Below, one piece after another: positions 9,230 through 58,737 of a stretch of 64,000 bases of DNA (the stretch's first letter is position 1; every line of letters begins with the position of its first letter). The notes below the pieces were generated by a model that worked only from the letters and a program-made list of their open reading frames with translations, ran no database searches and was not told the origin of the DNA. Both the position numbers and the translations under genes were made by a program. This DNA comes from Eledone cirrhosa (lineage: Eukaryota): assembly GCA_964016885.1 (NCBI GenBank), contig OZ024749.1, positions 3,348,001 to 3,412,000 on the forward strand. Direction: 5' to 3'.

Positions 9230-9319
<90 letters not shown>

Positions 9320-9351
9320 GGACTTACTCAGAATATGGAATGGAAAAAATA
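9198..9351. repeat. About 40-bp inverted repeat bracketing a pure (TA)n
   Basis: ttttttccattccatattctgagtaagtccaatatta ... taatattggacttactcagaatatggaatggaaaaaa. Confidence 0.9.
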
Positions 9352-14927
<5,576 letters not shown>

Positions 14928-14928
14928 A

Positions 14929-15920
14929 ATTAAGTTAAAAATGTACATCCACATATGTATACTGAAATACTAGTATGCATATGAATACACACACGTATAC
15001 ATATGTAGATGTACCGAGTTTTTCACTGGTCACTTTACTGTGAGTTTCCAGCTATTCTGTATGTAAACACACAGACAAACCGGTTTTTAGAGTCATACTG
15101 GTTTTTGAGGAAACACCTTTCCTCTATTCTCCAGAAAGCAAGACAAGGAATATTGAACTAGTTTCGATGTTGTTACATCTCATCAGCAATATTTACCTAT
15201 CTTCCGGCCTCTCTAGAGAATCGTAAAAGCACATATCGTTATATGCTTTTTCTATGAAAATTAGTAGTGGGCAGACTAATTTGCATAGAGCGTGAGTACG
15301 TACCGGTTCAACGGAGACGATAAAAACAAATAACGAAACGAAATTAAATTTCGTTTCGTTTGTAACTCACTTTTGTATGACTGACGCTTAAACAATTAAG
15401 TTAAAAATGTACATCCACATATGTATACTGAAATACTAGTATGCATATGAATACACACACGTATACATATGTAGATGTACCGAGTTTTTCACTGGTCACT
15501 TTACTGTGCGTGTCCAGCTATTCTGTATGTAAACACACAGACAAACCGGTTTTTAGAATCATACTGGTTTTTGAGGAAACACCTTTCCTCTATTCTCCAG
15601 AAAGCCAGACAAGGAATATTGAACTAGTTTCGATGTTGTTACATCTCATGAGAATAGAGGAAAGGTGTTTCCTAAAAAACCAGTATGACTCTAAAAACCG
15701 GTTTGTCTATGTGTTTACATACAGAATAGCTGGACACTCACAGTAAAGTGACCAGTGAAAAACTCAGTACATCTACATATGTATACGTGTGTGTATTCAT
15801 ATGCATACTAGTATTTCAGTATACATATGTGGATGTACATTTTTAACTTAATTGTTTAAGCGTCAGTCATACAAAAGTGAGTTACAAACGAAACGAAATT
15901 TAATTTCGTTTCGTTATTTG

Positions 15921-15922
<2 letters not shown>
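14929..15922 (-). mobile_element. Non-coding hammerhead-bearing retrozyme/Penelope pLTR-like insertion: about 1.5 tandem 466-bp units plus a ~270-bp inverted copy
   Basis: taagttaaaaatgtacatcc recurs at 14931 and 15397. The inverted copy spans 15650-15922. (TA)n lies on both sides. Confidence 0.85.
15149..15193 (-). ncRNA. Minimal type I hammerhead ribozyme
   Basis: Minus strand: AAUAUUG CUGAUGA GAUGU-AACA-ACAUC GAAA CUA GUU CAAUAUU. It has a 7-bp stem I, a 5-bp stem II and a palindromic stem III (ACUAGU). Confidence 0.9.
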
Positions 15923-17460
<1,538 letters not shown>

Positions 17461-19120
17461 ATAACTTTGAATAACTTTGAAATGTTTTGGCCAGTATTGG
17501 CCCAGGCCATGTCTAACTTAATAGCACCACCTGGCGAAGTCTTTCAATTCAGGATTTGGGCACCATGGCCCATTCGAGAAGAGAATTACTGTTTGCGGAG
17601 ACATATCCGGGTGTGGGTGGTTTGTCCGGGATTACTTGGAGGAATTTGTCCAAAGACTTCTTGAATTTTGTGTGGTCAGTCTCTGTTTTGACGTGTCCTG
17701 GTGTGATGTTGAAGAGAGCAGGGCCGATTGAGGTGAAATAATTGTGCCGTATTGTTGTTATGAGTTGCGATTTAGATTTTTGAATGGGACGGATAGCACG
17801 GGGCCCAAGCCTTGGGTGTATCTTGAAGGCGATGCCAACATCATTTGGGCAGTGATGATGGAACATTTTCCACATCATGCAGATAATATAACGCTCACGG
17901 CGACGTTGGAGTGAGTAAAGTTTCAGGTTTTCCAATCGACCCCAGTAGTCAAGGTCTGACATGCCATCTATCTTTTTCGTGATTGCCCTTTGAGGAGCTT
18001 CAAGTTTCATGATACTTTGTTTCGTGTGGGGAGACCACAGTGGACAACAGTATTCAAGGTGTGGTCGGGCGAAAGTAGAGAAGAGAAGGATAATGGTGCG
18101 GGAATCTCTCGACTGGAAGGTTCTGAGGATCCAGGAACACATTCTGCGGGCCATGTCAACTTTGCTGCTTATATGCGTGGTCCAGCTTATGTTGCTGTCC
18201 ACGGTTACTCCCAAGTCTCTGATGTTGTTAGATGCCACGAGAGTTTCCCCGGAGGGAAGGGAGTACGGGAGTTTCAGAGCATCCTCTTTTCCAAAGTGGA
18301 TCAGTTCGAATTTGTCTTCGTTCAGTAACATGTTGTTCTTTTCTGCCCATTGGGTAACAGCCAGTAGGTCTGACTGAAGGCTTATCCGGTCATCCACGCC
18401 ATTGATGACCTTTTGGAGCTTGGAATCATCAGCGAAAATTTTAATGTTGCTGTGTTTGATGATGTCAGTGATGTCATTAATATAGATGATGAAGAGAAGT
18501 GGGCCCAACACAGTGCCTTGTGGGACTCCACTACTGACTTTGGCTGGGCTTGATTTGACTCCCTCAACTACAACATGTTGGGTTCTGTTTGACAGGAAGC
18601 TCTTGATCCACTGCAGCAGCTTTCCAGTGACACCAATATTGGACAGTCTTTCTCAGTAGAATGTTATGATCAACCCTGTCAAAGGCCTTGCTGAAATCAA
18701 GGTAGATAACATCAGTGTTGGAACCCTCTCCCAAGGCTCTCAAAATGTCATCAAAGTGATGCAGTAGTTGCGTCAGGCAATCCCTTCCATTACGGAATCC
18801 ATGCTGGTTGGAGTTCAGCATATTGTTACTCTCAAGGAAGTGGGTCATTCGCGATCTCACCACTCGCTCAAATACCTTAATGATATGAGAGGTGAGTGAG
18901 ATTGGACGGTAATTCACGGCAAGGGATTTGTTTCCCTTTTTGAAAACTGGGACAACAGACTGGGATAGAAGGTTTTCTGGCACATATCCAGCATCCAGTG
19001 AGTTCCGCCACAGATTGGCAAGAGGAGAAGCAAGTTGGTGTTGACACGCCTTCAAGACACAAGCAGGGAACCTATCGGGACCTACTGCTGAATTATGCTT
19101 GATTTCCTTTATTGCCGATA
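17461..19120 (-). mobile_element. 5'-truncated CR1-like LINE, RT domain with one frameshift near 18650
   Basis: Motifs NYRPISLTS, QHGFR, YLDFSKAFDRV, GVPQGTVLGPLLF, FADD and RPHLEY..W. The 3' tail is a 10-bp repeat (ttcaaagtta)2 abutting (TA)n. Confidence 0.92.
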
Positions 19121-19179
19121 CATACATATATATATATACATACATATATATATATACATACATATATATATATACATAC

Positions 19180-19242
<63 letters not shown>

Positions 19243-19478
19243 GAAACACACAGATACATGCGGACACACACATATATACATGAATGCATCCGCACCCAAC
19301 TGTGAGTTAAGGGTGCCAACTTCACCGATGTTGCTCAATGAATGACTGGGACAGACCAATTCAGTTTGAACTAGACTGAACCAGTATCAGAGTTAAAAAT
19401 ACATTATGAAGAGAGAAGAAACATTTAGATATAATTAGTAATAAAATGTATCATACCTAAACTGTTCCTAAATTCCTC

Positions 19479-49998: not shown

Positions 49999-50529
49999 AT
50001 GCATCAACACGCATCACAACAAAACATGAATAGGCGTAAATCACAACCCATCCACATCTTACAAATCTGCAACGACGAACCTGCACAAAATAAAACCTCA
50101 AATTGTAATTGCCACCTACCTGATAAGTGCCCACTAGGGAATAGATGCCTGGATTCGAGTATGGTATACCTGTGTACTGTAAATTCAGGCAACTCTACTT
50201 GGCACTACATAGGTTCCACGACTGGGGAGTTCAATAAAAAGTGGTACGTCCATAGACACTCCATGAAGAACCGTAGACTGGAGAACTCTACGACGCTCGC
50301 CAATAAAATCTGGCAGCTTAAGGACAAATACCTAAAATATAAGATTAGCTGCTCAAAATTATCGGTAGCAAGAGACTACAGCAAGGGAATGTCCCACTGC
50401 GTGCTTTGTAATTTAGAACTACTACATATTTTAAGGTACAGTGGGATGCTGCTTAACAGCAAAATAGAAAGATCAATTTTCTGTAGGCATAAAAAAGCTA
50501 CTAGATTCACAAACTTGAAACCATCATGA
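49999..50529 (+). pseudogene. GIY-YIG endonuclease domain of a 5'-truncated Penelope-like element (Naiad-type)
   Basis: CNC...CPLGNRCL..MVY...YIGST...H..S...TTLA..IW...C.LC..E...LLNSK.E...CRHK. Confidence 0.85.
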
Positions 50530-51322
50530 TTTGAACCAGTAACCGCAACATTAGAACTGACACCTAAATTTTAACATATAGAATTAACACCATCGCACTG
50601 CTATTAGCTGTCGAACGGCCAACTGGTCTCTAGATCATAAATCTCTGAACATTTCTTTCACCCTCTCTCCCTGAAACAGCATCAACCCCATTAAGATAGA
50701 ACAATCAGCAAAACATTTACAACAAGCGTCTATCAAACGTCCCGTCATTCCTAGCCCATAAATCTCACACATGTATTCACCAATTAATCTCTAATTGATT
50801 GTATTTTCCTTTTATATGCCACTACATCTGGCCGTCTACACGTATCTATGTACATCTCGAATCTGGTTTCACATGTTAGCACTAAACCCACCCACGAATC
50901 CTTATAAGAACACTTACTCAAAAGCTACTACTAACATACGATGTACTGACACGCTCTCACATATTTCTTTCTTTATATTTTCCATTCTCTCATTTCCTTA
51001 TTTTTTAATGTACTCTATCTTATCTTTTTACTTTTTACATCTGTAACTTCTCTACATATTTACCATATATGTTTTATTATTGATATTATTATTTTGATTA
51101 TACACTATTTTTCTATATAACTCTTGCCTCGAGTGAATTATTTTCATATCGACGTACTCTGATGTGTTGACCAGAGGTAAATAATGTATTGGAGATCGAG
51201 TGACGAAACCTCAAGCGATTAGCGAACTCTAGACTCACCTGATAAAAGAAACAACTGTCAGTACATTAAATAAAGCCCCTTATTGTACAGCCAACCATGT
51301 TACTCTTCATTATTTAACTATA
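50530..51322 (+). mobile_element. 3' UTR/pLTR of the Penelope-like element, with a decayed long-stem-II hammerhead (51154-51264)
   Basis: GUACU CUGAUGu ... GAAA CAACU GUC AGUAC, then aataaa. Inverted homologues of this end lie at 46587-46660 and 47585-47675. Confidence 0.7.
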
Positions 51323-57801: not shown

Positions 57802-58672
57802 ATAACTTTGAATAACTTTGAAATGTTTTGGCCAGTATTGGCCCAGACCATGTCTAACTTAATAGCACCACCTGGCGAAGTCTTTCAATTCAGGATTTGG
57901 GCACCATGGCCCATTCGAGAAGAGAATTACTGTTTGCGGAGACATATCCGGGTGTGGGTGGTTTGTCCGGGATTACTTGGAGGAATTTGTCCAAAGACTT
58001 CTTGAATTTTGTGTGGTTAGTTTCTGTTTTGACGTGTCCTGGTGTGATGTTGAAGAGAGCAGGGCCGATTGAGGTGAAATAATTGTGCCGTATTGTTGTT
58101 ATGAGTTGCGATTTAGATTTTTGAATGGGACGGATAGCACGGGGCCCAAGCCTTGGGTGTATCTTGAAGGCGATGCCAACATCATTTGGGCAGTGATGAT
58201 GGAACATTTTCCACATCATGCAGATAATATAACGCTCACGGCGACGTTGGAGTGAGTAAAGTTTCAGGTTTTCTAATCGACCCCAGTAGTCAAGGTCTGA
58301 CATGCCATCTATCTTTTTCGTGATTGCCCTTTGAGGAGCTTCAAGTTTCATGATACTTTGTTTCGTGTGGGGAGACCACAGTGGACAACAGTATTCAAGG
58401 TGTGGTCGGGCAAAAGTAGAGAAGAGAAGGATAATGGTGCGGGAATCTCTCGACTGGAAGGTTCTGAGGATCCAGGAACACATTCTGCGGGCCATGTCAA
58501 CTTTGCTGCTTATATGCGTGGTCCAGCTTATGTTGCTGTCCACGGTTACTCCCAAGTCTCTGATGTTGTTAGATGCCACGAGAGTTTCCCCGGAGGGAAG
58601 GGAGTACGGGAGTTTCAGAGCATCCTCTTTTCCAAAGTGGATCAGTTCGAATTTGTCTTCGTTCAGTAACAT
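57802..58672 (-). mobile_element. 5'-truncated CR1-like LINE (third copy)
   Basis: ORF 57890-58672 differs by about one residue from the matching part of 17549-18511, and it has the same 3' junction in (TA)n. Confidence 0.93.
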
Positions 58673-58689
58673 ATATATATGATATATAT

Positions 58690-58737
<48 letters not shown>

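Follow-up and report, generated by a model that had tools for sequence, protein, structure and literature searches.

How did a short non-coding repeat with a self-cleaving RNA motif come to lie, partly in tandem and partly inverted, inside a long (TA)n tract? The question is raised by positions 14929-15927 of the window, a 64,000-nt stretch of the Eledone cirrhosa genome to which all coordinates refer unless a locus is named. Based on its sequence, we read this element as a two-armed insertion of a 466-nt hammerhead repeat, probably placed in (TA)n by an autonomous Penelope-like element (PLE) through its endonuclease and reverse transcriptase (RT); we give this a probability of about 0.85. The parts of the element are the following.

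9231-14928, no strand assigned: (TA)n-rich target microsatellite, left flank
14929-15649, minus strand: left arm of 1.55 units, bounded on the outside by site B, the proximal fixed start (monomer position ~465/1)
14929-15394, minus strand: complete non-coding monomer of 466 nt, highly self-paired
14943-15014, minus strand: long hairpin, immediately 5' (in the RNA) of start site B
15320-15394, minus strand: internal copy of the "tail" segment between both fixed starts, with a 13-bp hairpin at 15332-15360
15395-15649, minus strand: partial second monomer, its hammerhead cut off within CUGAUGA where the arms meet
15650-15927, plus strand: right (inverted) arm of 0.6 unit, bounded on the outside by site A, the distal fixed start (monomer position ~392-397)
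15928-17463, no strand assigned: (TA)n-rich target microsatellite, right flank

The TA array at 9231-17463 surrounds the element, and the RNA strand with the hammerhead is the minus strand. Alignment of 14929-15394 with 15395-15649 gave 4 mismatches in 255 nt (pairs 15043/15509, 15046/15512, 15092/15558 and 15140/15606), which bears out the 466-bp tandem period proposed in the first-pass annotation. The proposed switch to an inverted copy at 15649/15650 and the (TA)n flanks were likewise confirmed by alignment. The inverted arm consists of monomer positions 203 to 1 (15650-15852), followed by positions 466 to 392 (15853-15927), the tail of this arm; it contains no hammerhead. Only a few bases had been said to differ between the copies, and the 203-to-1 part too has just 4 mismatches. 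The last ~5 nt of the inverted arm are ambiguous with the TA flank, so the earlier end call at 15922 was fair. The arms of the window copy differ at 10 of 451 positions, and it is therefore not among the youngest copies. No ORF of at least 120 aa was found within the element, except for TA-run frames overlapping its edges. The monomer is predicted to fold with -159 kcal/mol (z -11 versus shuffles). The outer end of the left arm would be the first base of one cDNA. Elsewhere in the window, two near-identical young LINE-type RT fragments were observed at 17549-19334 (minus strand; Pfam RVT_1) and 57890-58732 (minus strand).

The ribozyme motif was then compared with the known hammerhead types.

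15149-15193, minus strand: type I hammerhead of the canonical metazoan form, from alignment, fold and Rfam match; cleavage predicted

Stem I is formed by 15193-15187 paired with 15155-15149 and extends to about 15133-15204. The core comprises CUGAUGA at 15186-15180, a 4-bp stem II, GAA and a 2-bp stem III with a palindromic loop. The predicted cut follows GUU, between 15156 and 15155, and the stems also form in the circular fold of the 466-nt monomer. In Rfam, Hammerhead_HH9 matched 15133-15204 with 36.2 bits (E 9.9e-8); the gathering score of 52 was not reached, although every core position is present in the window copy. The complete minus-strand hammerhead reported at first pass was thus recovered by alignment, fold and Rfam. 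The match came as Hammerhead_HH9 below its gathering score; the listing omits one lower-scoring clan match and gives no separate score for Hammerhead_1, the model that had been suggested. The canonical metazoan type I hammerhead, which acts as a dimer, has a helix I of ~6 bp, a helix II of 4 bp and a palindromic helix III of 1-2 bp; the min-HHR of PLEs has a long helix II of 7-8 bp, a short helix I and no helix III (PMC4209133). The window motif, with a helix I of 7 bp plus extension, a helix II of 4 bp and a helix III of 2 bp, is not a min-HHR. Of its earlier description as a minimal type I hammerhead with palindromic stem III, type and palindrome hold, whereas "minimal" has to be replaced by the canonical form. 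Matches of the window to miRNA and sraA models in Rfam were rejected as low-complexity or hairpin noise.

The second copy does break inside the catalytic core at 15649, as had been noted, but any meaning of this break was lost in the comparison with other loci. Inner junctions between arms are variable and fall anywhere in the unit. Of 59 inner ends, a single one is 5 nt or less away from the cut site, against an expectation of 1.6 (10 of 69 arms, which end near a unit boundary, were set aside). Therefore, the break is ascribed to chance. A run-off pile-up of ends at the predicted cut site was not seen among these 59 inner ends, and 127 pieces cross the site with only one single-base gap.

In the 3.0-Gb genome, the hammerhead pattern of the family gave 9,255 exact matches versus 0 in the control, and a looser pattern gave 7,740 versus 0 in the reversed control. 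Since the controls were empty for both patterns, the motif is not a product of chance. At 466 nt per hammerhead, the family amounts to ~4 Mb of repeat. Its subfamilies are 89 to 100% identical to the window unit, and the youngest is essentially undiverged, so that the family can be called young as proposed, while the window copy itself cannot. In 43 mapped loci, sampled out of several thousand, units run head to tail at 466-470 nt and no ORF was found between the ends (0/43). This agrees with the first-pass view of a non-coding, non-autonomous unit and goes against its caveat that genomic copies might always be attached to an RT ORF. The family thus shows the sequence features of a non-LTR retrozyme: a type I hammerhead in each unit, a short non-coding tandem unit dispersed in many copies, and neither LTR-retrotransposon features nor an RT ORF of its own in the mapped loci. 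The ORF with RT and GIY-YIG endonuclease that defines an autonomous PLE is absent from it. The hammerhead core was invariant in 36 monomers, a result that is partly circular because about half of them were chosen by the hammerhead pattern. One stem II pair was U-A in 21 monomers and A-U in 15, and 7 of 144 predicted pairs showed double changes. Counted together, this sequence comparison speaks in favour of selection acting on the retrozyme RNA structure. The cleavage triplet is GUU in 27 of the 36 aligned monomers; GUU is a weaker hammerhead triplet than GUC. Identical substitutions were seen in single copies at 9/38 loci for monomer position 118 and at 5/38 loci for position 212 (window 15046 and 15140), which suggests hot spots of mutation or RT error. 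The unit was also found at low depth in sequence runs of three other organisms (X4-X6), as would be given by relatives, diet or contamination.

The window contains a copy of a second family.

29491-29996, plus strand: member of another retrozyme family with a unit of ~434 nt, older than the first and homologous to it in colinear order; its hammerhead core is at 29750-29780

Homology of the two families was evident from a global alignment score of 168 (shuffle maximum 4). The fixed ends of the second family are 51 nt apart, 228 and 279 nt downstream of the cut, and the window copy ends at the proximal one. A first look gave 3,480 candidates in the genome. Both families contain an octamer (window 15279-15286, ATGCAAAT on the RNA strand), which we take to be a POU-factor site. 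It is lost in the youngest, most active subfamily, and is therefore not required.

The most telling feature of the insertions lies in their ends. The 43 loci of the 466-nt family comprised 20 ranked by similarity and 23 taken by position on one contig (C1). Retrozyme insertions consisted of two facing arms whose outer ends lie at two fixed sites ~70-75 nt apart, in this family about 228 and 300 nt downstream of the predicted cut. Among the 31 of 43 loci that could be classed as two-armed (both arms at least 45 nt, both ends visible), 27 had one end at site A and one at site B, none had A+A or B+B, and 4 had one unclassed end. Four seemingly one-armed loci (L037, L038, L116 and L127) were found to hold a tiny second arm of the expected type. 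The 27 of 31 A+B loci show the layout of PLE insertions, with an inverted, 5'-truncated arm and a tail at one end only. Target-site duplications, which overlap both ends, were readable at three of 49 loci scanned (L011, 14 nt; L014, 15 nt; L176, 15-17 nt), most others lying in TA runs where they are unreadable; the combination of an AT-rich or (TA)n target with a target-site duplication is again that of PLE insertions. The rule of one start of each kind is new here for retrozymes. Among the papers listed by literature searches on retrozymes, hammerheads and Penelope in octopus and cephalopods, and on inverted, tailed and target-primed retrozymes, none described the family or such a rule; an entry may exist in Repbase, Dfam, subscription journals or supplements, which lay outside this search.

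An inverted arm might also arise without second priming, by fold-back self-priming of one strand, as proposed for rotifer PLEs from palindromic junctions (PMC3846280). The two arms usually share one haplotype, and at two loci the central overlap between them is long (L007, 109 nt; L124, 32 nt), both in favour of this model. Most central overlaps are only 0-9 nt, however, and in the short insertions L021, L012 and L030 neither arm is contained in the other. We consider fold-back very unlikely as the source of the inverted arm.

The priming of each arm from its own DNA end is supported by the autonomous PLEs of the same genome. Intact ORFs of 808, 775 and about 1204 aa were found, in many near-identical copies. 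All three families insert in (TA)n, and their two-armed loci have one fixed 3' end per arm (775-aa family 7/7, 808-aa family 9/9, 1204-aa family 8/8, with one ambiguous). Their tails measure 68-69 nt (775 aa), ~175 nt (808 aa) and 45/60 nt (1204 aa). Pfam recognized RT and GIY-YIG in the 775-aa ORF only and gave no match for the 808- and 1204-aa ORFs, which are called PLE from motifs and layout. By motif criteria taken from PMC8557442, the 808-aa ORF carries RWK/DKT motifs of the Hydra type, and the 775- and 1204-aa ORFs have the CX4CxxC linker of the Neptune/Nematis type. The 775-aa family (L152:1353-4816) has a separate upstream ORF of 409 aa, and a regular expression search gave no canonical hammerhead in it. 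In the window, a decayed 3' PLE fragment related to the 808-aa family begins at a TA run (~49999-51300, plus strand); it comprises the endonuclease end and the terminal repeat, in which a degenerate motif resembling a hammerhead lies near 51158. In vitro, both strands are nicked and extended by a PLE protein, which favours AT-rich DNA and begins reverse transcription at two internal RNA sites whose spacing equals the genomic tail (PMC11167929). Because the three PLE families match the retrozyme layout and because of these in vitro starts, we infer from the insertion anatomy a PLE-driven priming at both ends.

[quoted passage not shown] In the proposed sequence of events, the PLE protein would nick both target strands in a staggered manner. 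Each DNA 3' end would then anneal by 1-4 nt to the RNA and prime its own cDNA, one at site A and the other at site B, and both cDNAs would be joined wherever each stops. Two further steps are less firm. Tandem transcripts may be cut by dimeric hammerheads, with the monomers ligated into circles, and the arms may be rolling-circle copies of such a monomer circle.

The nature of the RNA template was approached through the arrays. In young insertions the number of near-identical units reaches about 35, and arms pass the predicted cut site seamlessly for up to 22 or more units. An array of 7+13 units was identical throughout, an array of 17.5+9 units differed in the outermost unit and the tail only, and an array of 22+13 units had 3 single substitutions. 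Such uniform long young arms suit the rolling-circle copying of a monomer circle that was proposed in PMC7229834. Haplotype switches in register within one arm were found at L182:1580-2046 and L117:2495-2931. Both intervals include the cut site, a hint in the sequence of jumps between cleaved RNAs, although a four-gamete scan revealed no recombination hotspot there. From this sequence evidence, we lean slightly towards a circular RNA template for the arms.

The same twin-primed PLE insertion could have used an uncleaved linear multimer as template, with a slow or dispensable hammerhead and no circle. Unprocessed RNA was the main PLE substrate in vitro and the ribozyme was dispensable for insertion (PMC11167929), and 8 of 9 retrozyme dimers did not cleave (bioRxiv 10.64898/2026.07.22.740005). 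In the present data, the lack of a pile-up of arm ends at the cut site, the frequent GUU triplet and the long homogeneous source arrays of the youngest haplotype point the same way. At L121, three A>G changes are fixed in all units of the 20-unit array. This haplotype was rejected as locus-private proof of rolling-circle copying, as it gave 70 matches at 7 loci, one of them with a longer arm; a linear multimer could therefore have served as template. A further 11 loci have variants in both arms that are private within the 38-locus sample only. Against a linear template, any new haplotype has to go through a single-unit stage before it can occupy both arms of insertions of 20-35 units. Preservation of stem II by double change and the switches at L182 and L117 also count against it, and circular RNAs were shown for related retrozymes in mussel, coral and axolotl (PMC7229834). 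A linear multimer is thus a serious possibility, but one that we would not bet on. Two other candidate signals were discarded. An editing-like A>G pattern showed no overall excess (5/17 locus-fixed and 14/68 shared alleles, versus 15 T>C), and a monomer-length joint in contigs of run X5 was not accepted as RNA evidence, as tandem DNA is also expected to give this joint.

Long arrays with patterned or higher-order variants (L111/L112 and L174, with a period of about six units in L174) might be taken for satellite DNA spread at the DNA level, and assembly is difficult for inverted repeats in TA runs, so that the window locus might be a fold-back artefact of assembly. Against this, the arms of the window copy have diverged as given above, the same two ends recur on many contigs, and target duplications exist. 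In addition, contigs of an independent run end loose and TA-rich at 15320 and 15389, which are the two fixed sites. Satellite spread or an artefact is extremely improbable, and DNA-level spread is refuted as the origin of the dispersed copies. The patterned variants do indicate that arrays may also lengthen at the DNA level after insertion.

Direct contact between the two kinds of element was seen at 4 of 108 PLE loci (L166, L190, L193 and L255), where a retrozyme arm is fused to a PLE arm with no TA between. L193 combines a PLE distal end with a proximal end from a retrozyme of the second family; L255 is the reverse, with a different PLE family. Both keep the rule of one A and one B across two elements, and they are not fold-back copies, since each joins arms of two different elements. 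L190 and L166 join two distal-type ends and fall outside the rule. L166 is the only fusion that involves the 466-nt family: almost exactly three units run straight into a 1204-aa PLE, and the parts are of similar age. The fusions span two PLE families, and a count of 3/50 versus 0/58 (p=0.096) was obtained before L255 counted against it. Neighbourhood did not single out a partner either. The first result of 10/40 versus 0/40 (p=0.001) fell to 12/50 versus 8/58 with a fairer search, and the retrozyme excess near the 1204-aa family is not relied on because it was not robust to this change. At L191:4887-5947, a retrozyme lies within a terminal repeat of a PLE of the 1204-aa family, and the target duplication there is ~12 nt.

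The monomer might itself be the solo terminal repeat (pLTR) of a further autonomous PLE family. PLE terminal repeats bear hammerheads and tails, and of 57 retrozyme families in Xenopus, 24 are similar to repeats already known, almost always PLE termini (bioRxiv 10.64898/2026.07.22.740005). When the 466-nt monomer was aligned, locally and globally, with the terminal repeat of each of the three PLE families, scores stayed within the shuffle range, except for scores driven by TA/CA-rich stretches. The claim that a Penelope-like RT is the mobilizer is therefore carried by the insertion layout, which the three intact families match, and not by shared terminal sequence, which these families do not provide. 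The comparison covered three families, and the genome contains other hammerhead motifs; a wider hammerhead pattern revealed no new family among the first 100 of 212 matches (control 56). Hammerhead-like motifs unrelated to the 466-nt family were observed at L134, L135, L146, L147, L149 and L157, and some recur at independent loci. The solo repeat is opposed by the absence of ORFs from the mapped loci and by the head-to-tail units, and at L166, the sole ORF fusion of the family, the PLE has its own, unrelated terminal repeat. We regard this origin as very unlikely.

Taken together, the sequence data are compatible with twin-primed rolling-circle reverse transcription, in which a pair of PLE enzymes would use two fixed starts on a circle, one per DNA end, and occasionally take an arm from PLE RNA. 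This complete scheme is put forward tentatively, as its chances fall a little short of even. If true, it would document directly, at the genome level, that circles of animal retrozymes template PLE transposition, and the PLE "tail" would reflect an obligate rule of one start per end. As a catalogue entry alone the 466-nt family is ordinary, one more retrozyme family. Its value lies in a signature of the mechanism, the use of both starts once per insertion as in three autonomous families, together with the fused arms. Since the start sites are defined and intact candidate enzymes are encoded in the same genome, partner, starts and template (circular or linear) are within reach of the in vitro TPRT assay already published.

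That PLEs mobilize animal retrozymes is a proposal dating from 2020, for which the arguments are still those of co-occurrence and phylogeny, and retrozymes as non-autonomous PLE derivatives are already in print (PMC7229834; bioRxiv 10.64898/2026.07.22.740005). Li, Clavereau & Pollet 2026 (bioRxiv 10.64898/2026.07.22.740005) reach the same conclusion on the mobilizer, and their unit range of 51-972 bp includes 466. They argue from co-occurrence and pLTR phylogeny, mostly of vertebrates, and state that the mechanism is open. We argue from insertion anatomy and fused arms, and pLTR homology was not found for the three PLE families compared. The metazoan non-LTR retrozymes of PMC7229834 resemble the present family in their non-coding tandem monomer, canonical type I hammerhead, low GC, thousands of copies, arrays from dimers to long multimers, highly self-paired RNA and coexistence with PLEs. 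The 466-nt unit exceeds their range of 170-400 nt (mussel units are 350-390 bp). A two-armed, two-start layout is not described in the main text of that paper, where "inverted" has 0 occurrences. For its coral, mussel and axolotl retrozymes circular RNA was shown, whereas a circle of the 466-nt family is putative. With the PLE insertions of PMC8557442, PMC3846280 and PMC11167929, the family shares the tandem plus inverted, 5'-truncated copy, the tail at one end, (TA)n targeting, target duplications and two internal RT starts. It differs from them in having no ORF, a tail of 70-75 nt compared with 30-40 in those insertions, both arms able to be long multimers, and a hammerhead of the canonical form where that of PLEs is minimal.
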